Made by a program: the position numbers and the translations under genes
The notes under the pieces: model-generated
What the model saw: the letters and a program-made list of their open reading frames with translations, nothing else
What the model was told of the DNA's origin: nothing
Database searches by the model: none
Shown here: in pieces, positions 1 through 7,469 of the stretch
How positions within the stretch are numbered: the first letter of the stretch is position 1
Layout: every line of letters starts with the position of its first letter
Source of the DNA: a virus
Lineage: Duplodnaviria > Heunggongvirae > Uroviricota > Caudoviricetes
Direction: 5' to 3' (one strand)
DNA length: 7,469 nucleotides
IMG/VR virus record: IMGVR_UViG_2778261691_000002
Span: 1-7,469 of that record

Positions 1-46
1 CTGTGTTCTGGTCATTTGTTGACACACGTACATAGCCAATAAGCAT
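1..46 (-). CDS. Serine DNA invertase (Gin/Cin/Pin/Hin family), N-terminal 15 codons only; gene continues beyond the left window edge
   Basis: Reverse complement of 1..46 reads atg ctt att ggc tat gta cgt gtg tca aca aat gac cag aac aca g = MLIGYVRVSTNDQNT, the N-terminus I recognise from Gin/Pin-type invertases, including the catalytic-serine motif YVRVST. SD-like GGGAG lies 7 nt upstream on the minus strand (revcomp of 54..58). Located 55 bp from a 26-bp crossover site. Gin, Cin and Pin cannot be told apart from 15 residues. Confidence 0.85.
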   Translation of the reverse strand, partial: MLIGYVRVSTNDQNT

Positions 47-72
47 GGTAGATCTCCCTGACAAAAGCAGGA

Positions 73-594
73 ATGATGCCATTTGCTCGTTATTTCTGCA
101 TTTTCATAAACGTTGGTTTGGGAGAAGGTTCTGCGTTGCCTGTTGGCGTACCAGTTCCTTGGCCTTCAGCTACGCCGCCGACAGGCTGGCTGAAATGCAA
201 CGGAGCAGCTTTTTCTGCTGAAGATTACCCTAATCTGGCAAAGGCTTACCCGACGTTAAAATTGCCTGATTTACGCGGTGAGTTTATTCGTGGCTGGGAT
301 GATGGAAAGGGAGTGGATAGTGGGCGAACTCTGCTTTCAGCACAAGGAGATGCTATCCGAAACATTACCGGGGTGGTTGGCTACAGTTCAATTGGCGATT
401 CACAAGGGTTATTAGGATACGTGTCAGGGGCCTTTTCGGCTTCGGAGTCAAAAGCTCCCGCATTAAGTGGTGCATCAGCATCCGGGTATCAACGCTCCCT
501 GTATGCGAATTTTAATGCTTCAGCCGTTGTCCCAACCGCAAATGAGAACCGCCCACGTAACATTGCCTTTAATTATATTGTGAGGGCTGCATAA
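73..594 (+). CDS. Alternative tail-fibre C-terminal cassette (Sv'-like, tail-collar domain), silent in this orientation; functional boundary is the crossover site at 113/114, not the ATG at 73
   Basis: Tail-collar-type motif PTGWLKCNGAAFSAEDYPNLAKAYPTLKLPDLRGEFIRGWDDG. The ORF begins only ~40 nt upstream of the crossover site and has no fibre N-terminal domain. Stop TAA at 592..594 overlaps the ATG of the downstream tfa (TAATG). Confidence 0.75.
   Translation: MMPFARYFCIFINVGLGEGSALPVGVPVPWPSATPPTGWLKCNGAAFSAEDYPNLAKAYPTLKLPDLRGEFIRGWDDGKGVDSGRTLLSAQGDAIRNITGVVGYSSIGDSQGLLGYVSGAFSASESKAPALSGASASGYQRSLYANFNASAVVPTANENRPRNIAFNYIVRAA
101..126. repeat. 26-bp invertase crossover site (gix/pix/hix-like), left copy
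   Basis: Plus strand ttttcataaacg|tt|ggtttgggagaa. The reverse complement of 1992..2017 is ctctcgaaaacc|tt|ggtttgggagaa: 21 of 26 positions identical, same central TT dinucleotide, imperfect dyad symmetry like hix (TTATCAAAAACC TT GGTTTTCAAGAA). Confidence 0.8.
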
Positions 595-1196
595 TGGATA
601 ACGCTGTATTAAATAGCGAGATTATTGCCACGAAGGCAGGGAATATTACCGTCTATAACTATGATGGTGAAACACGGGAATATATTTCCACTTCAAATGA
701 ATATCTTGCCGTTGGTGTTGGTATCCCGGCATATTCCTGTTTAGATTCACCAGGCACATATAAGGCTGGTTATGCTATCTGCCGTTCTGCAGATTTTAAC
801 TCATGGGAATATGTGCCAGACCATCGCGGTGAAATCGTCTATAACACCGAAACGGGAGAAGCCAAAGAAATCACAACTCCGGGTGATTACCCTGAAAATA
901 CAACCACTATCGCCCCGTTAACGCCATACGATAAATGGGATGGTGAGAAATGGGTGACCGATACTGAGGCACAGCACGGCGCAGCAGTAGATGCAGCAGA
1001 AGCACAGCGCCAGTCGCTGATTGATACTGCAATGGCCTCCATCAGTCTGATTCATCTGAAATTACAGGCCGGACGGAAGCTGACGCAGGCAGAAACCACC
1101 CGACTTAACGCTGTGCTGGATTACATTGACGCGGTGACGGCAACAGATACCAGCACCGCGCCGGATGTCATCTGGCCTGAACTGCCGGAGGCGTAG
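594..1196 (+). CDS. Tail fibre assembly chaperone (Tfa family), cognate to the silent fibre cassette
   Basis: 200 aa. C-terminal Tfa signature ...LNAVLDYIDAVTATDTSTAPDVIWPELP (compare lambda Tfa ...VDTSTAPDIEWP...). Start is translationally coupled to the upstream cassette. Length matches what I recall for e14 TfaE. Confidence 0.85.
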   Translation: MDNAVLNSEIIATKAGNITVYNYDGETREYISTSNEYLAVGVGIPAYSCLDSPGTYKAGYAICRSADFNSWEYVPDHRGEIVYNTETGEAKEITTPGDYPENTTTIAPLTPYDKWDGEKWVTDTEAQHGAAVDAAEAQRQSLIDTAMASISLIHLKLQAGRKLTQAETTRLNAVLDYIDAVTATDTSTAPDVIWPELPEA

Positions 1197-1611
1197 GCCA
1201 TTCAATATCTGGCGCCCCGGAAGTATCGACCAGTTCCAGTGCGTCCAGATAATCCAGCCACAAATTATATTGCGCCAGCTCGTCACCTTTCAGACGACCA
1301 ATAGCGGCTTTACCGGGCCATTGTTTACTGTTCATGTATTCGTTGGCCTGGTTAATTAGTAGCTGTCTTTCTGATTCAGTAATTTCAATAAGTTCTTCAT
1401 GCGTGGGTGGAGGAATATCTGCCCACGCAGGCAGCCCATCATCTCCGGCAATACGGATTTTTCCTTGTGGCGGTTCAGCCATAAACTCACTGATAATATT
1501 TTGATTTACTTCCTTAGCGTCTGATAAATCCCACCCCTCTGATTTATATTTATCAATCATATCCACAGGGAAAAAAGCATTATGCCTTGCGCTATAAACA
1601 TATTCGTTCAT
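1168..1611 (-). CDS. Tail fibre assembly chaperone (Tfa family), cognate to the currently expressed fibre
   Basis: C-terminal Tfa signature ...LWLDYLDALELVDTSGAPDIEWPTPP. I prefer the ATG at 1611..1609 (MNEYVYSA...), which has AGGGTGA 7-13 nt upstream, over the GTG at 1620 used by the ORF track. Sits directly downstream of the fibre gene. Confidence 0.8.
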   Translation of the reverse strand: MNEYVYSARHNAFFPVDMIDKYKSEGWDLSDAKEVNQNIISEFMAEPPQGKIRIAGDDGLPAWADIPPPTHEELIEITESERQLLINQANEYMNSKQWPGKAAIGRLKGDELAQYNLWLDYLDALELVDTSGAPDIEWPTPPAVQAR

Positions 1612-1631
1612 ATAAATCACCCTGAATAAAA

Positions 1632-2360
1632 TTACTCACCAACAGCCCACCAACTGTAATTCATCGATACCGTGTCGCTGGTTGATGACGTTCTGTAAGC
1701 AGAATTAAAACCGGTTAATGTTGGGCCTTCTGCGGTCATCACGAATCCCCGCCCAGCACCTAAAGGCGCACCACCATCACCAGAATGAGTAAGCATGGCG
1801 CAGTCCACTTTTTTAGGAAAAGGGATGCTGAATGTAATTCTCATTGTTTGCGTCGATAATGTCGGCGTAACCGCACCACGACCATATTGCAGGATTTTCC
1901 CGTTGGGTAATTTCATCCATCCATCACCACTGGCAAAAGAGGCCATGTCCGGTATCTGATTTTCCCCTGTTCCCACCCCCCGTTTCGCTGCTTCTCCCAA
2001 ACCAAGGTTTTCGAGAGCCGTTTTCACCGTGCCATCCGATTTGATATCACCAAACGGATTCTTGCGGCTCAGGTATTCAACAGCAAACCCCGATCCCAGC
2101 AATTCAACAAAACCGGGCAGATCACCATTATCAAGCACATCCCGTTGCGTTTTATCACTTACAAACTGGGCCAGAGCTGCAGCAATAAAGCTGGCCTGCC
2201 GAATAACCTTATTGACTTGCGCACTGGAGGCTTTCCCTGCTGTAAATCCGGATAAAAGCGCAGGCAACGCTTCCCATTCCTCCTGCGACATAACATTGGC
2301 ATTTTTACCCGTTGCGAATGCTTTAAAGTCATTTTTTGCCATCAGAGTAATACTCCCCAT
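1632..2360 (-). CDS. Tail fibre protein: constant N-terminal part (2360..2006) fused at the crossover site to a variable C-terminal receptor-binding part (1991..1632)
   Basis: Position at the end of the baseplate operon and followed by Tfa. The crossover site is in frame inside the ORF. An alternative start at ATG 2342..2340 (MAKNDF...) overlaps the upstream stop as TGATG and may be the true start. Short for a fibre (236-242 aa). Confidence 0.75.
1992..2017. repeat. 26-bp invertase crossover site, right copy, in inverted orientation relative to 101..126
   Basis: Plus strand ttctcccaaacc|aa|ggttttcgagag. Lies inside the minus-strand tail-fibre ORF, where it encodes ...ALENLGLGE... at the constant/variable junction. 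Confidence 0.8.
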
Positions 2361-3022
2361 GCCCCTACATCAAAACCACTGATAAATTCGTTATCCATAT
2401 CAAAACCAAAAAATTTTGAACCTTCCGATGGGGTTTCCACCGAAGGTGTTTCAATACCACCCGCCCACACCCCGGCGGCTTTTACTGTGAGATATCCCTG
2501 TTTAATTGCAGCAATTAACTCACGCGATACATCTGAAATATCAGTATCAGGAAAGACCCAGACCGATATCGTCATGTCCTGGTTATCGACAATCTGCATT
2601 CGCAGCCCGGATCCTGCTGTCGCCGTGTCAAGAATTGCTGGAAGCGAATCATTCCGTCCGTCCCAGTTATTAATCGCAATCTTCGCTTTAAGAATGACAC
2701 GATAAGTTTCATCGCTGAGATACATGTATCCTGAATCAGGATCGTATGGTCCCTGCCATACCCCCTGATCATATCCAAGCCCGTCGGTATCCCAGCTGAA
2801 ATAGACACCTGAGATAGGCTGGCTGACAACACGGCTACGTCCGATCCACAATCCAAGAATGTCAAGTTGCACACCAACCGCAGAGTCAATATCAAATGCA
2901 GTAATCAGCCCTCTGGTGGCAGCCGCAACATCAATAAGTGGCCGGGTCATCAGATCAACATGCGCAAGAAATTTAGGTTTGGTGGCGTGGTAGTTCGTGA
3001 TTAGTTCGGTGTATTTGCTCAT
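2342..3022 (-). CDS. Baseplate / tail-fibre-proximal protein (DUF2612-like; position equivalent to P2 gpI or Mu gp48)
   Basis: 226 aa. ATGA overlap with the upstream J-like gene at 3019..3022. Sits between the baseplate J-like gene and the tail fibre. Family assignment is by synteny and recollection, not a search. Confidence 0.6.
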
Positions 3023-4218
3023 GTCTCCACCGTTATAACGATATTTTCCGGGGTACAGGACGCAGATTCGTTGTATCTGATATCAATGTTTGATGACGAC
3101 AAAGCCCCCGGGGATTTCCCAATCGTCAGTTCCTGAATATCGTAATAGCGTGCATTCCCGCCACTCACCACGCCAAGATTCGCCGGTGAGTAAATGCGAC
3201 TTAAAAGGACCGAATCACCAATCATCAGACTATTGATATAGTCGGAAATAGCCTGCTGGATCTGCTGCCCTATCTGTGAGGTATAACCCGTAAAAACTTT
3301 TAATTTAATCCGGGCATAAACAGGTACATCACTGGAACGCGAAAATTTGATTACATGGGGATTGCCGTATTTATCCGGAACCGTAACGGATGTTGTACCG
3401 TGAGTGGCTGTTCCCTGGCCTTTATTCCCTCTGATAGCCTGAGCAATATCCGTCACATCACCGCCATCCACAATTACAGCAACAGAGTGTGGCGGTAACC
3501 CGTTACCGTCCTCCGAACCATTATCGTTTTCATAGAGTTTGTGGCGGGTTACACCGGTAACATTAGAAACAGCACCATTCAGTGCTTCAAATGGGGTTAT
3601 TGATGGTAACGCAACACTTTGCGACTGTCGGATACGTAACTCCGCATCAGTTTCTGCTGGAGTGCCTACAGTAGCTGCAGCAGGATTGGTTACCGAAACC
3701 CAGCCACGGGTTGGCGTATTAATTTCAGTGATAGTTCCAGCCAGCGCCGCCACTGCACCACTGACGGAACATGTTGCGGTCACCATCACTGTACCATCCA
3801 CGCCGACCACCACTGAAGCAGGCAAACGCCATATCACATTATTACTGTCTTTCACGCTGCCATTAATGATGGTTGTTCCGGCAGTTCCTGTAAGAAGCAA
3901 ATCAACCGTAGAATTCGTCGCGCCTTTACGTGAAATACCATTTATTTTCACGTTACTGGTCAGTGCAGCCCCATAGCCGGTTGCCGGTGAAAAACAGTTG
4001 TAGACAGTTATCGCCATATTATTGGCATCATGAATCGCCAGCGCCATCAGAGCCACCATCTGGCCGTCTTTGCTGTCCGGTTCGAGGTAGGCATCACTGC
4101 CATAAATCTGCTGAAAATAGCTAATCAGGGTGCTGAGTATCGTCTGATAATCAGGCGCACTGATCCCCTCCGCGGTTACCTTTGCAGATAAACCGAGAGA
4201 ATCAAGGTTCAGAGCCAT
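3019..4218 (-). CDS. Baseplate J-like protein (P2 gpJ / Mu gp47 / T4 gp6 family)
   Basis: 399 aa. TAATG stop/start overlap with the upstream W-like gene at 4216..4220. Position after the gp25/W-like gene. Gly/Thr/Val-rich beta-type composition typical of baseplate wedge proteins. Confidence 0.7.
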   Translation of the reverse strand: MALNLDSLGLSAKVTAEGISAPDYQTILSTLISYFQQIYGSDAYLEPDSKDGQMVALMALAIHDANNMAITVYNCFSPATGYGAALTSNVKINGISRKGATNSTVDLLLTGTAGTTIINGSVKDSNNVIWRLPASVVVGVDGTVMVTATCSVSGAVAALAGTITEINTPTRGWVSVTNPAAATVGTPAETDAELRIRQSQSVALPSITPFEALNGAVSNVTGVTRHKLYENDNGSEDGNGLPPHSVAVIVDGGDVTDIAQAIRGNKGQGTATHGTTSVTVPDKYGNPHVIKFSRSSDVPVYARIKLKVFTGYTSQIGQQIQQAISDYINSLMIGDSVLLSRIYSPANLGVVSGGNARYYDIQELTIGKSPGALSSSNIDIRYNESASCTPENIVITVET

Positions 4219-4571
4219 TACGCCTCCGATGTAACAGTCGTTATTCCATAAAGAGTGTCGATTTCAGCGGAAAACATGACACGTCGGGTCGTGGTATCCA
4301 CCGTCGTATTGAAAGAGAGGATTGATTTAACGCCCTGCGTTTCGAGGATGCGCTTACGGATCGCCAGGTTGTAGGTTTCCGGCTTCTGCTTACCGAGTAC
4401 GGACTGGATCCACGGAGTCCCCTCGGTGGTGTCGAGAAACCATTGCCCATACCACAATTCGAATCGCGTTTTTACCGCCTGCGCCACGGCCTCCGGTGAG
4501 TTAATCAGCCAGGTGTCATCACCGCTGCCAAAGGTGTAATCGCCATCGGCGTCTTCACGTCTGTATCGCAT
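4218..4571 (-). CDS. Baseplate protein, GPW/gp25-like (P2 gpW / Mu gp46 position)
   Basis: 117 aa, the typical size for this family. TGATG overlap with the upstream spike gene at 4569..4573. Synteny V-W-J. Confidence 0.6.
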   Translation of the reverse strand: MRYRREDADGDYTFGSGDDTWLINSPEAVAQAVKTRFELWYGQWFLDTTEGTPWIQSVLGKQKPETYNLAIRKRILETQGVKSILSFNTTVDTTTRRVMFSAEIDTLYGITTVTSEA

Positions 4572-5323
4572 CAGTTTACTCCGTCGGTATTGCTTCCACC
4601 GCGCTGAACACCACCATGAGTGTGCGTATCATCAATTGGCTTGCCGTTAGCCTTCACGCTACCCAAAAACTCAACAGCACCAGTGATTTTTGAAGCCACA
4701 CCAGAAACCACAGACCCCACCATGCCACCCATCCAGGTTAACAGGCCATGAATGGTTACTTTCTCAGAAAAATCAGCCAGAGGGGCAACCACATCAAGAC
4801 CACCCGGAGCGACAATTTTAATTTTCCTGGTATCAGGATTAAGCTCAAAATAGGTGCTGCCGTCATCACTACGCAACTGTGTGGCACTGGTATTAATACC
4901 GCTAATCTTCCTTGCCTGCGACTGGGGACCGACAATACAAAACGCATCCGATAAATCATGCATTCTGTCATCGACCGGCTCCTGTATCCCGCCGCTCTGC
5001 CACCAGAAATCAATACAACGATCGGCAAAAATCATCAAACATTCATCACCGGCTTTAACTGGGAACGTTAGCGTGCATCCTCCGCCGCGCGGGAATACCA
5101 CTGGCACATCCACCAGCAATGGGTAATTTTGGGTAATGCGGTTGCCGTCATTATCCTTTTCAACCGAACGGATAGCAGGCTGCACAACTGCCGTCACCGC
5201 ATCAGGATCGAATGACTGAATAATGCCAGGCAAGGCGACACGGATCTGGTTCTTTGTTGTTTCCCGTTCAGATTTGAATGTTTCGGCAAGGTCGCCGCTG
5301 CGGGTCTGGTCAGATACGGCCAT
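4571..5323 (-). CDS. Baseplate central spike / assembly protein V-like (P2 gpV / Mu gp45 position)
   Basis: 250 aa. ATG at 5323..5321 with GGAG about 10 nt upstream. C-terminal tip ...KPIDDTHTHGGVQRGG has an HxH motif like the metal-binding spike apex. First gene after the inserted cassette and terminator. Confidence 0.65.
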   Translation of the reverse strand: MAVSDQTRSGDLAETFKSERETTKNQIRVALPGIIQSFDPDAVTAVVQPAIRSVEKDNDGNRITQNYPLLVDVPVVFPRGGGCTLTFPVKAGDECLMIFADRCIDFWWQSGGIQEPVDDRMHDLSDAFCIVGPQSQARKISGINTSATQLRSDDGSTYFELNPDTRKIKIVAPGGLDVVAPLADFSEKVTIHGLLTWMGGMVGSVVSGVASKITGAVEFLGSVKANGKPIDDTHTHGGVQRGGSNTDGVN

Positions 5324-5342
5324 TTAGTAGGCTCCAGAAAGC

Positions 5343-5367
5343 AAAAAACCCGCCTGGTGGCGGGTTT
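5343..5367 (-). terminator. Rho-independent terminator for minus-strand transcription
   Basis: Minus-strand RNA: aaacccgcc-acca-ggcggguuuuuu. A GC-rich 6-9 bp stem (cccgcc/ggcggg at 5349..5354 and 5359..5364), 4-nt loop, then a U6 tract. Lies 18 nt downstream of the 57-aa ORF stop and ~20 nt upstream of the spike gene SD. Confidence 0.8.
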
Positions 5368-5384
5368 GATTTATAAGAACTTCA

Positions 5385-5558
5385 CTAACTATCTTTCTTG
5401 GGAAAAGTTGAAGGCTTGTCGTGATAGCTTTCCGTCATAATTTCGATATCCCCGAAAGGTACTCTAGCCATAATCTCTTGCTCATAGTTATCTAGGAAAG
5501 AGACCTCAGGCTCACTTGGTTTAGGTTGTGGTTCATTTTGGTCTTCTGGACAGGACAT
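5385..5558 (-). CDS. Hypothetical small acidic Pro/Glu-rich protein (57 aa), putative partner of the membrane protein
   Basis: Hand translation: MSCPEDQNEPQPKPSEPEVSFLDNYEQEIMARVPFGDIEIMTESYHDKPSTFPKKDS. The ATG at 5558 is 2 nt after the TGA of the upstream membrane gene (TGAatATG), with AAGG 7 nt upstream. Ends 18 nt before the terminator. Not in the ORF track (under 60 aa). No family recognised; could be non-coding. Confidence 0.4.
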   Translation of the reverse strand: MSCPEDQNEPQPKPSEPEVSFLDNYEQEIMARVPFGDIEIMTESYHDKPSTFPKKDS

Positions 5559-5560
5559 AT

Positions 5561-6091
5561 TCAAACCTTACTTATTAACATGCACGTTACAGAAATAATA
5601 AAAAATACAAATGACATAACCATCCATCGAAACAACTCATTTACAAACGCTGATTTTTCTTTATGGATTTTCTCGATTCTATCAATAGCCCTACCATACA
5701 TTATCAAATGAAATCTGACTGTGTCATCTCTACTACCCCTCAGAAGAAATTCATGTTGTTCAGGTGTTCGATGCACAGGCATTTTGGGAATATTTCTAAG
5801 TTCCCAACATTTCCATAAATAATAAAAACAAAAAACCAAACATACAAAACATGAACATAGACACAATAGAGACAATCTTGCGGATAGACTAGTCTTTAAC
5901 TGTTGTCCCAGCTCAAAGGACCCAAAAACGGCTAATAATGCAGAAATCTCAACACCAAGCACAGCAAGAAGAAAATTAGCTTTGTCCTCTAACCGCCTGT
6001 ATGTTGTCTTAACTTCTTCATACCTGTCTCTCGAGTACGACAAAATCGTATCTACTTCAAGGCCAACAGCCTCATTCCTTTGATTGCACAT
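5561..6091 (-). CDS. Hypothetical three-TM membrane protein (176 aa) encoded in an AT-rich insert; no family recognised
   Basis: ATG at 6091..6089. Charged N-terminal ~40 aa, then hydrophobic segments FLLAVLGVEISALLAVFGSF, LSLLCLCSCFVCLVFCFYYLW and WMVMSFVFFIISVTCMLI, with a charged ~60-aa loop between the second and third. An open frame of 176 codons in roughly 36% GC DNA is unlikely by chance. Begins 6 nt after the stop of the signal-peptide gene. Confidence 0.6.
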   Translation of the reverse strand: MCNQRNEAVGLEVDTILSYSRDRYEEVKTTYRRLEDKANFLLAVLGVEISALLAVFGSFELGQQLKTSLSARLSLLCLCSCFVCLVFCFYYLWKCWELRNIPKMPVHRTPEQHEFLLRGSRDDTVRFHLIMYGRAIDRIEKIHKEKSAFVNELFRWMVMSFVFFIISVTCMLISKV

Positions 6092-6097
6092 ATTGTA

Positions 6098-6451
6098 TTA
6101 ATCGTCAACCTTCTTACAAGGAAACGAACCTATGATTCTCGGCGCATCCATGCTGTTCTGCAGTAGTTGGACATTCAAGAAACGCGTTTCGGTACCCGGA
6201 CGGCGAATGAACTCGAAACCGTAATTGTTACCGTCTTTGGCTGGCATAAGCCCCATATCCGCCTTCATTCCATTACCGTTGCCGAGCGTTTTGATTTTCT
6301 GGGAGGTAACTGTCTCACCATTAATCCTGAACAATGAATCAGGAATCAACTCTAATTTGTAGCCACCACACTGAAGCGTGACACCGCCAGGATTCGCAGC
6401 AAATGCGAACCCCGGAAGGAAACAGAGTCCAATAACAATCCACTTTTTCAC
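6098..6451 (-). CDS. Hypothetical secreted/periplasmic protein with Sec signal peptide (117 aa)
   Basis: N-terminus MKKWIVIGLCFLPGFAFA|ANPGG is a classic signal peptide with an AFA-A signal peptidase I site and no lipobox. GTG start at 6451..6449 shares one base with the TAG of the upstream gene (taGTG), with GAGG upstream. Two Cys in the mature part (possible disulfide). Normal GC (~47%). Confidence 0.65.
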   Translation of the reverse strand: MKKWIVIGLCFLPGFAFAANPGGVTLQCGGYKLELIPDSLFRINGETVTSQKIKTLGNGNGMKADMGLMPAKDGNNYGFEFIRRPGTETRFLNVQLLQNSMDAPRIIGSFPCKKVDD

Positions 6452-7469
6452 TATCCTACCTCACGCTGTAAAGACGACGCCGAACGAAGATCCGCCGCAC
6501 CGCGCGCTTCGCACATCATATCCATGTACCACGCCTGGCCCCTTGTGTCGCCAGTGTACATAATCCCGCGCACAATATAAACGCCATCCGTTGCGATGCT
6601 GGCAGGCTGCGATATGGTGCCGCTTAGCGTAATATTTCCGTCCGTGTTCTGGTCGGTGATCTGCCCACCAGCCATAGCGATATCGTTGTTCGACAACGCG
6701 GTGCGATATACGGAAGCCTGATCCAGTTGAATGAGCCCATTAACCCGGATGTTCGGATTAATAAGCGCGCGGACGTTTACGCCGTTGCCGATGGTCTGCT
6801 GCGGCATGCCAATAAGCCCGGTAGCGCTGTTGAGCACAATCGCTTCGTGAACATATTCATTATTCACCACCATCTGGCGCTGACCATCCACGAATTGCCA
6901 TGTTGCGCCACATTGCCCGGCTACGTTATCCATTAGATGCCGCGTCATGCCAAAGAGCACCCGCCCCCGGGGGAATACAGTAGCAGGCATTTCAGGCGTC
7001 AGGCCTTCGGTCGCACCTTTGGCTTCGAAGTCTTTCATCAGCGCACGGTTCACATCAGCGACCGTGTAACCGGCAGCCAGCGTCTGTGAGGTTATACTGG
7101 TGGCAAAAGCCAGATCAGTATCTGCTGCCTGAATCAGGACGTAGGAATCAACCGGACTGTCTTTTCCTGTGACCGAGTAGCGAATTTCACCGCTGAAAAT
7201 CAGTCCGTAGTTGCGGCCATCTCTCTGGCCCACATCTGCCGCGTCGACTTCGCGCACGGTCCCGACGTCGCTTGCCGCCACCTCCGGCGCGATACCGTCG
7301 TAACCGGCAATCAGCCGCACTTTCGAAAATTCCTTCCCGGTGATTCGGTTCACAGTATCTGCCGAGAGGTTATAAATTTTGATAGTCCCTACCCGGGACG
7401 CGCTGCTGATGTTGAACCAGTCGATCGTAAAGGTGACTTTGAAATCACTTAGCTCAATTCCCTGACCGT
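6451..7469 (-). CDS. Phage tail/baseplate structural protein, 5'-truncated by the window edge (possibly baseplate hub, Mu gp44 / P2 gpD position)
   Basis: The frame stays open from the annotated GTG at 7353 up to position 7469 (hand-translated upstream codons ...GQGIELSDFKVTFTIDWFNISSASRVGTIKIYNLSADT-V-NRITGKEF...), so the real start is outside the window. Gly/Thr/Asn/Val-rich composition. The hub assignment is from synteny only. Confidence 0.5.
   Translation of the reverse strand, partial: GQGIELSDFKVTFTIDWFNISSASRVGTIKIYNLSADTVNRITGKEFSKVRLIAGYDGIAPEVAASDVGTVREVDAADVGQRDGRNYGLIFSGEIRYSVTGKDSPVDSYVLIQAADTDLAFATSITSQTLAAGYTVADVNRALMKDFEAKGATEGLTPEMPATVFPRGRVLFGMTRHLMDNVAGQCGATWQFVDGQRQMVVNNEYVHEAIVLNSATGLIGMPQQTIGNGVNVRALINPNIRVNGLIQLDQASVYRTALSNNDIAMAGGQITDQNTDGNITLSGTISQPASIATDGVYIVRGIMYTGDTRGQAWYMDMMCEARGAADLRSASSLQREVG

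Follow-up and report, generated by a model that had tools for sequence, protein, structure and literature searches.

SpoIISA/SpoIISB of Bacillus subtilis consists of a toxin with three membrane helices and a disordered antitoxin of 56 amino acids (aa). At about 248 aa, SpoIISA has a cytoplasmic domain of the alpha/beta type, and that system differs from the pair described below in gene order and in hosts. Temperate phages also carry morons and cargo hotspots, examples being HK97 gp15, lambda lom and bor, and the defense hotspots of P2-like phages and P4 satellites; morons and temperate-phage cargo and defense hotspots are reportedly treated in Juhala 2000, Cumby 2012, and Rousset 2022. PycTM is a membrane-disrupting effector thought to kill the infected cell via membrane damage (PMC11224242), and what defines it is its pairing with the PycC cyclase (PMC11224242, PMC13069673). 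Here, we analyzed a 7,469-nucleotide (nt) stretch of a Caudoviricetes genome (IMG/VR virus record IMGVR_UViG_2778261691_000002, positions 1 to 7,469), called the window below. Its block at positions 5343 to 6097 lies among baseplate genes and encodes, on the minus strand, a 176-aa membrane protein and a 57-aa peptide. We are highly confident that this block is dispensable accessory cargo encoding a real, conserved membrane-protein/peptide pair. The pair is probably a toxin/antidote-like or anti-phage module and not a part of the virus.

An initial annotation, made from the letters of the window and its open reading frames (ORFs), had described in this block a 176-aa ORF, a 57-aa ORF 2 nt further on, and a terminator made of a hairpin and a U-run. 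Indeed, all of these elements are present on the minus strand. The ATG of the smaller ORF, at position 5558, lies 2 nt past the TGA of the larger one, to which it appears to be translationally coupled (a program-made ORF list gives the smaller ORF as 59 aa, starting at an upstream TTG). For the 176-aa gene, the ratio of nonsynonymous to synonymous substitution rates (dN/dS) between the window and a Salmonella copy is 0.105, at a dS of 0.42; the 57-aa gene has a dN/dS of 0.179. Homologs that are 42 to 52% identical retain the length, the architecture, and the small downstream ORF. Further, seven diverged phage lineages and 13 of 13 IMG/VR loci retain both genes together, in the same slot every time. 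The layout of a membrane protein with a small partner, which had been remarked on at the outset, is real and conserved, and both ORFs are genuine genes under purifying selection.

Both genes escape annotation in E. coli. RefSeq, using the Prokaryotic Genome Annotation Pipeline (PGAP), has zero features under the cassette in all eight complete E. coli genomes that carry it (window positions 5324 to 6097; NC_011741.1 positions 2730842 to 2731615 and seven others), and the annotation of IAI1 shows a gap between the spike gene and the gene for a 117-aa protein. Some Salmonella records (L013 and L014) annotate the 176-aa gene without the 57-aa ORF. The RefSeq annotation implies that the block is noncoding AT-rich filler with chance ORFs, and a sister prophage, KFu024, does hold a 426-bp AT-rich stretch without an intact ORF. 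Against this stand the dN/dS values, conservation at the protein level down to 17 to 50% identity with a consistent architecture, a PHROG family for each ORF, a peptide motif kept across genera, and the existence of fused forms (both described below). The selection and conservation data already refute the filler explanation, to which we assign a practically nil probability.

The block is one allele of a multiallelic cargo slot that lies between a hub-proximal gene of about 115 aa and the spike gene of SEN34-like temperate myoviruses. It had been assumed at first that baseplate operons of this type run hub-spike-W-J without interruption and that the relatives of this phage are e14-like. Neither assumption suits the phage, which is SEN34-like (Brunovirus-like). 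In this group, the slot is almost always filled by variable cargo poor in G+C (guanine plus cytosine), a 113- to 154-aa gene also stands between hub and spike, and interruption is the rule. The nearest deposited phages are Salmonella phage SEN34 (Brunovirus) and the induced phage vB_EcoM-606R2, and both carry other genes in the slot.

Among 5,426 complete E. coli genomes, 8 contain the cassette, with the block 99.6 to 100% identical. About 350 E. coli genomes have the hub and spike flanks, and of these only the same 8 hold the present insert. A spread sample of 24 two-piece matches yielded at least 10 insert span classes, from 2,337 to 3,550 bp. A tblastn search of 50,697 deposited phage genomes with the 176-aa protein gave no match. 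The hub-spike junction is therefore polymorphic for presence of the cassette, and the initial proposal that the block is accessory and not part of the virion is borne out by these counts and by the absence of a match to any structural family. A role in the virion or in tail assembly, for instance as an accessory baseplate protein or a chaperone, would suit the position in the baseplate gene block, which is the one point in its favor. Against it speak the three hydrophobic membrane helices, the lack of a structural family match, the copies outside phages, and the fact that neither the isolated phages SEN34 and 606R2 nor most related prophages have the block. Absence from relatives, non-phage copies, and membrane helices bring this explanation close to refutation, and we regard it as extremely unlikely.

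Other alleles of the slot carry a YafO-family toxin with a 190-aa partner, a DUF4282 protein, a DUF2335 protein, a pair of 142- and 243-aa proteins, or a 426-bp gene-less filler. YafO-type alleles are found in other prophages, and toxin-antitoxin-type cargo therefore recurs at the slot. In the YafO allele of E. coli 98191 (L003 808-1798), the toxin is of type II and the 190-aa partner lies upstream; the slot of SEN34 (L025 6769-7440) has a gene of equal length, 417 nt. The filler allele of KFu024 (L002 1054-1479) has 36% G+C and no terminator hairpin. It was considered as a remnant of the cassette and rejected, as it has no similarity to it.

Low G+C content is a property of the slot as well as of the block. 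Every cargo allele lies below its own spike gene (36 to 46% versus 50 to 56%), and homologous cassettes have 34 to 41%. In the window, the block has 37.6% G+C, compared with 49.0 +/- 2.5% for all other 755-nt windows (z = -4.5), and G+C at third codon positions (GC3) is 31.6% in the 176-aa gene versus 42 to 63% in neighboring genes. The manual counts of the initial annotation were close to the measured values: 28 to 43% per 60-nt line and about 36% overall for positions 5581 to 6060 (measured, 27 to 43% and 35.8%), and 57% for the flanking line at 6601 to 6660 (measured, 55%). The 117-aa gene has 46.9% G+C.

An acquisition that is recent and singular does not agree with the finding that pair alleles only 42 to 52% identical occupy the same slot in related phages. 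Locus L012 has a spike 98% and a W protein 99% identical to those of the window, yet its membrane protein is 49% and its peptide 41% identical. The Salmonella membrane protein is 90% identical to that of the window beside a spike that is 71% identical. Diverged pair alleles thus occur on similar backbones, indicating that the pair is swapped as a unit and that the two proteins change together. Such codivergence would be the pattern expected of a cognate pair. The exact Salmonella 176-aa protein is found on more than 700 contigs, including degraded prophage remnants beside sopE. In the remnant at L013 (Salmonella GCA_006823965.1, 4261-14660), an integrase, RecT, a gap, the 115-aa gene, the pair, the spike, W, J, fiber assembly, and SopE follow one another, and most head and tail genes are gone. 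From these comparisons, the occupant of the slot appears to be an old, mobile, two-gene module.

We next consider the borders of the slot and the signals available for expression. The terminator consists of a 9-bp stem, AAACCCGCC-ACCA-GGCGGGTTT, followed by a T-run (positions 5346 to 5367), and RNA folding gives -15.7 kcal/mol (z = -3.3 versus shuffles). Aligning the DNA 5' of the spike gene across the window and six further slot alleles shows that the hairpin stem, the U-run, the ribosome-binding site (RBS), and the spike start are common to five of the six other alleles. The stem is kept while the loop varies, and homology starts exactly at the hairpin. The first 59 nt 5' of the spike gene match in 193 genomes, with about 90% identity among the matches listed. 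Because the terminator is common to five of six other alleles, it is the right border of the slot and not private to the cassette, to which it had originally been assigned.

The description of the cassette as a moron stands in part. In the sense of Hendrix and Juhala, the cassette is extra DNA between conserved genes, has a distinct composition, and is followed directly by a strong terminator, which is shared by the slot. Strictly, a moron also needs its own promoter. Here, candidate promoter sites occur at chance level (3 versus 2.6 in shuffles), and the 176-aa gene begins only 6 nt past the stop of its 117-aa neighbor (3 to 8 nt, or an overlap, in homologs). A Q-family antiterminator is encoded by the IAI1 prophage, and in lambda, polymerase modified by Q transcribes past intrinsic terminators, so a terminator in the middle of the late operon is tolerable.

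The tight packing of the pair in late-operon orientation and the lack of a visible separate promoter would also suit a function late in the lytic cycle (lysis timing, membrane state, or counterdefense), with transcription occurring only with the late operon; in addition, one relative adjoins an Acb2/Tad1-hairpin-domain protein. However, the phage has a separate lysis block of holin, endolysin, and spanin type elsewhere, and in the IAI1 prophage the holin and GH24 endolysin genes are about 16 kb away from the pair. Further, the pair is dispensable and is replaced in sister phages by unrelated cargo, including the YafO toxin pair, and copies exist outside phages. The Salmonella pair also persists in remnants without most late genes, such as L013. 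We therefore consider a late lytic function decidedly improbable.

The 176-aa protein had been predicted to have three transmembrane (TM) helices and a charged loop. Consistent with this, hydropathy identifies hydrophobic segments at residues 37 to 62, 67 to 96, and 152 to 176, and a charged loop of 60 residues that contains 12 lysines and arginines. The N-terminal segment has 7 such residues, the first loop 1, the second loop the 12 already mentioned, and the C terminus 1, and the positive-inside rule predicts an N-in, C-out topology. The AlphaFold2 model (mean predicted local distance difference test [pLDDT] score, 80) has long helices at residues 10 to 58, 69 to 97, and 121 to 175. In order, the protein comprises an N-terminal cytoplasmic helix ending in Y-R-R-L-E-D-K, TM1, TM2, a basic helical cytoplasmic segment of about 60 residues, and a third hydrophobic helix. 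Glu35, Lys37, and Lys146 are near-invariant charged residues at the predicted cytoplasmic face. In one IMG/VR locus (L031 4001-4504; UViG_2558860444_000015), the membrane-protein gene ends early, at residue 165, and most of the third hydrophobic helix is lost; the peptide ORF is intact, 22 nt 3' of the truncated gene. This locus may represent an inactivated effector with its partner kept.

The family extends beyond phages. A search of 1.84 billion representative proteins with a profile built from the close family (E <= 1e-3) recovered only 37 relatives, all of which matched over their full length; the distant ones are 17 to 24% identical. Scanning one genome per species with a sequence pattern of the close family gave no match. 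The family alignment shows an N-terminal helix with Y..(R/K)..Y and, just before TM1, (R/H)-(L/F)-E-(D/E)-K. TM1 is followed by a TM2 ending in W...MP, the basic helical segment with a near-invariant Lys, and the third hydrophobic helix. We examined the DNA around distant relatives at L039/L040, in A. pittii, and at eleven loci from one genome per species (Oceanobacter, Thiocapsa, Thauera, Marinobacterium, a gammaproteobacterium, two Pseudomonas, three Acinetobacter, and a Zixibacteria metagenome-assembled genome [MAG]).

All 12 of the distinct distant loci with sequence past the stop have a small ORF of 28 to 58 aa that starts between -16 and +30 nt from the stop of the membrane-protein gene or, in the Zixibacteria MAG, is fused to it in frame (L023 ends at a contig edge and gave none). 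The same range of spacings, -16 to +30 nt, holds across more than 25 loci. The family peptides are 28 to 63 aa long; behind a variable, Pro-rich, usually acidic head they carry a conserved strand motif, hydrophobic-E-S-Y. In an alignment with the phage peptides, the core ...P-x-(L/I)-V-x-V-x-E-(S/G)-(Y/F) is common to most of the small ORFs, examples being APELVSIMEGY, APDLVPVKESV, APEIVVVRESY, and APPLVVATESY; the window has VPFGDIEIMTESY. The 57-aa peptide itself has an isoelectric point (pI) of 4.25, 13 Asp and Glu residues, 8 Pro residues, and no signal sequence, and its conserved core is Y-E-x-x-I-M-x-x-V-P-F-G-D-x-x-x-x-T-E-S-Y. Most peptides of the family are likewise acidic, with a pI of 4.0 to 4.6.

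The Zixibacteria MAG has an in-frame fusion that joins the peptide to the C terminus of the membrane protein. A search with this fused protein identified, beside short forms, four more long forms of 238 to 244 aa that are 40 to 50% identical to it. In all, the peptide extends the C terminus of five independent long forms (238 to 259 aa, 44 to 66% identical). Every long form has a linker rich in K/R, a conserved Met at the position where the free peptide starts, and the motif KPP-x-F-D-x-VT-E. Fusion of this kind is strong evidence, from gene architecture, that the two products would act together physically.

Outside phages, the pair lies in variable regions, some of them islands of the defense type. 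Its neighborhoods there contain a Type ISP restriction enzyme, a UvrD/GajB-like helicase, and DUF4760; a SEFIR/TIR protein, a HicB-like gene, and TniQ; and DarT with its NADAR antitoxin, nSTAND3, capP, integrases, and a Mu-like prophage, mixed with housekeeping genes. They also contain a convergent gene for a 761-aa TIR protein that matches the candidate defense family PDC-S73 (E, 2e-158). No recurrent third gene was found in the distant-copy neighborhoods examined. As separate observations, the gene for a 197-aa DUF4760 protein lies directly upstream of the distant module, in the same orientation, on three independent contigs (L039 4317-4910, L041 122-715), and other distant loci have a same-strand gene of about 200 to 260 aa just upstream (L044 2807-3586, L049 3162-3863, L053 203-853). 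Acb2/Tad1 is a family of phage anti-defense nucleotide sponges. On a single short metagenomic contig (L042 241-732 and 857-1594), a 245-aa distant relative is encoded directly downstream of an Acb2/Tad1-hairpin-domain protein.

How might such a pair work? In the mechanism that we favor, the two hydrophobic helices of the 176-aa protein would form a hairpin in the membrane, with the third helix at the C terminus and the basic helical stalk facing the cytoplasm. The protein would damage or depolarize the membrane, similar in principle to PycTM, SLATT, and SpoIISA-type toxins. The peptide would be its cognate, coevolving controller (an antidote or a sensor), binding the effector 1:1 and keeping it inactive. 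If the peptide were lost or displaced under phage attack or stress, the effector would be freed, and the lysogen would benefit through abortive infection or exclusion of incoming phages and/or through an addiction module. We infer this reading from the architecture, the coupled and coevolving small partner and its fusions, the YafO alleles of the slot, the mobile and defense-type contexts, and a weak resemblance to PycTM. A role in superinfection exclusion, abortive infection, or a toxin-antitoxin system, as first suggested from the gene layout, is plausible on these grounds. On the specific proposal, namely that a membrane-damaging effector checked by a cognate peptide benefits the lysogen through abortive infection, exclusion, or addiction, our confidence is almost evenly divided.

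Several observations weigh against the effector-and-peptide mechanism. Neither protein matches any family of known function above threshold in Pfam, NCBIfam, PHROGs, or PDB, and fold searches with the model return only generic helical bundles. A defense or addiction role would need expression in the lysogen, but no dedicated promoter is evident, and none of the sites in the chance-level scan is usefully placed, although a promoter may lie inside the upstream gene. The Pseudomonas and Acinetobacter peptides are basic, so acidity is not essential. The AlphaFold2 prediction of a fused relative has the same helical body and a disordered tail, and carries no docking information. The neighborhoods of distant copies also hold ordinary housekeeping genes, so that guilt by association is only moderate. 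Finally, there is a conflict in topology. The positive-inside rule would place the C terminus in the periplasm, yet in the fused forms the peptide, which when free lacks a signal sequence and would be cytoplasmic, is attached past helix 3 via a basic linker. Possible readings are that helix 3 does not span the membrane at rest, that the tail is translocated, or that the simple topology is wrong.

Because the positive-inside prediction and the fused forms conflict, a bolder version of this mechanism is possible. The pair could belong to an unrecognized, widespread class of cyclase-independent two-component membrane effectors in which the peptide, free or fused, gates the third helix of a PycTM-like protein, for example by holding it out of the membrane; loss of the peptide during infection would then lead to helix insertion and a pore. 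We think this version quite unlikely. If true, a peptide-gated helix would be a new, self-contained abortive-infection or toxin-antidote mechanism present on prophages, transposon-type islands, and defense islands.

Nonlethal superinfection exclusion is a further explanation for the same genes. The membrane protein, aided by the peptide, would block DNA injection or passage of the spike or tape measure of related phages. HK97 gp15 and T4 Imm block injection in such a manner. A predicted inner-membrane protein encoded beside the spike and hub genes is in keeping with this idea, and the fast-changing alleles on near-identical backbones fit an arms race between related phages. Relatives in non-phage islands of distant genera, beside restriction and TIR genes, would be unexpected for a lineage-specific injection blocker, and searches of the PHROG/PADLOC type revealed no homology to known exclusion proteins. 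As for the effector mechanism, no promoter for lysogenic expression was found. Exclusion of this type is possible but unlikely in our estimation.

The effector-and-peptide mechanism draws in part on the resemblance to PycTM, which raises the question of whether the protein is an orphan Pycsar-type effector, that is, a true PycTM homolog answering cyclic pyrimidine or other nucleotide signals from a cyclase elsewhere in the host or in an invading phage. PADLOC PycTM models match the 176-aa protein weakly (E, 2.6e-4 to 1.5e-3; 16 to 19 bits) and over residues 24 to 104 only; the best alignment pairs residues 24 to 89 with positions 9 to 66 of a 165-position model. The same models match 9 of 35 family members weakly and colinearly (best E, 2.2e-5), and faint precomputed PF18967 flags are present on some Salmonella homologs. 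The sizes are also similar (176 aa versus models of 154 to 165 positions), and PycTM disrupts membranes (PMC11224242).

In direct scans, Pfam PF18967 does not match the 176-aa protein (E <= 0.1), the 35 members (E <= 0.01), or 10 further members and homologs (E <= 10), and NCBIfam has no match to the proteins of the pair. No Pfam-scoring PycTM was recovered by the profile search of 1.84 billion proteins, and a profile search with the 35-member alignment in a word-indexed database reached no bona fide PycTM. Similarly, no cyclase adjoins any of the more than 30 loci examined, where the phage neighbors are baseplate genes and the conserved partner is the peptide. Among 73 neighbors of distant copies, no cyclase is found in the 25 Pfam families listed (of 46 matched) or in the PADLOC families matched. 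Because PycTM is defined by PycC and no cyclase is present, the 176-aa protein is not a Pycsar member, and an orphan effector responding to nucleotide signals is very unlikely. The protein may be a remote relative or a mere analogue of the PycTM-type membrane effector.

The features of the slot and its flanks are collected in Table 1. Transcription on the minus strand runs through hub, 117-aa gene, 176-aa gene, 57-aa gene, terminator, spike, the W/gp25-like sheath initiator, baseplate J, a DUF2612 wedge, and fiber genes. The hub gene encodes about 355 aa at full length in related records and measures 1068 nt in IAI1 and other records. The RBS of the spike gene is GGAG (positions ~5334 to 5337), and RefSeq names the product a membrane-puncturing spike protein.

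Table 1. Positions of the cargo slot, its contents, and its flanking genes in the window
Feature	Position	Strand	Evidence and remarks
Baseplate hub gene	6451..7469, cut by window end	minus	phrog_196 baseplate hub, E 3e-67; left flank of the region
Gene for 117-aa protein, left border of the cargo slot	6098..6451	minus	phrog_3443, E 1e-46, function unknown
Gene for 176-aa inner-membrane protein	5561..6091	minus	phrog_18554, E 5e-60, function unknown
Gene for 57-aa acidic, Pro-rich peptide	5385..5558	minus	phrog_18231, E 2e-6
Intrinsic terminator, right border of the slot	5340..5367	minus	9-bp G+C-rich stem, 4-nt loop, U-run
Baseplate central spike gene (250 aa), right flank of the slot	4571..5323	minus	Pfam spike N-terminal domain, E 2e-44, plus Apex motif

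The 117-aa protein at the left border has a clear N-terminal signal peptide (MKKWIVIGLCFLPGFAFA/A), and its gene overlaps the stop of the hub gene. Most related prophages have a gene of 113 to 154 aa at this position, whereas SEN34 has a 77-aa gene instead. The protein diverges faster than W (59 to 90% versus 86 to 99% identity). A virion gene would hardly be expected to encode a secreted protein, and the 117-aa gene may be a further accessory, envelope-targeted gene coexpressed with the cargo. At the other end of the window (positions 1 to 1620), sets of tail-fiber C-terminal and tail-fiber-assembly genes stand in opposite orientations (73-594 and 594-1196 on the plus strand; 1168-1620 on the minus strand). 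In the related phage vB_EcoM-606R2, a DNA invertase gene adjoins the equivalent fiber region (L024 960-1274). This part of the window looks like an invertible host-range segment of the Gin/Cin/Pin type. An Rfam scan of the window returned no RNA family.

The kind of element is already known: phage cargo in a hotspot, and a membrane effector with a small partner. What is new is the family itself, the conserved mini-peptide in free and fused form, the spread beyond phages, the slot of SEN34-like phages, and the escape of both genes from RefSeq annotation. The literature searched, on the slot, on SEN34 cargo, and on DUF5706, contains no description of the slot or of the pair. Surveys that rely on annotation cannot see the pair, because RefSeq misses both genes in complete E. 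coli genomes, though the pair is common in Salmonella prophages and remnants. It is a concrete, testable candidate among prophage-borne defense and toxin-antidote modules. The small peptide partner, fused in some lineages, offers a handle on mechanism through binding, gating, and topology, and the slot between the hub-proximal gene and the spike could be mined for accessory and defense genes, as the P2 and P4 hotspots were.

Compared with known families and systems, the 176-aa protein is a full-length member of phrog_18554; this family and phrog_18231 are unannotated, and the pairing, the non-phage spread, and the fused forms are unrecorded there. Like morons and the hotspots of temperate phages, the cassette consists of extra G+C-poor genes between otherwise conserved structural genes, at a multiallelic site with an intrinsic terminator and toxin-antitoxin-type (YafO) alleles. 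It differs from them in that it has no evident promoter of its own and in that the terminator belongs to the slot. As in membrane toxin-antitoxin systems, the two genes form a coupled bicistronic pair with a small, coevolving partner. SpoIISA was the top match of the PDB sequence search, but the match is not significant (E, 0.2) and no significant sequence similarity or fold homology was found; further, the cytoplasmic part of the 176-aa protein is all helical in the model. The likeness to SpoIISA/SpoIISB lies in the layout: the membrane protein has three hydrophobic helices plus a cytoplasmic domain, and after it comes an acidic and probably disordered partner of about 56 aa. The family differs from PycTM in scoring below the Pfam threshold, in lacking an adjacent PycC, and in having as partner a mini-peptide that is sometimes fused, and homology to PycTM is at most possible. 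It resembles PycTM as a small membrane protein of about 160 to 180 aa, with a charged N-terminal cytoplasmic helix that has an acidic-Lys motif at its end, directly ahead of the first membrane helix, and with weak, colinear hidden Markov model matches over the N-terminal 65 residues. If the link to PycTM is true, such membrane effectors could be controlled by a peptide rather than by a nucleotide signal.

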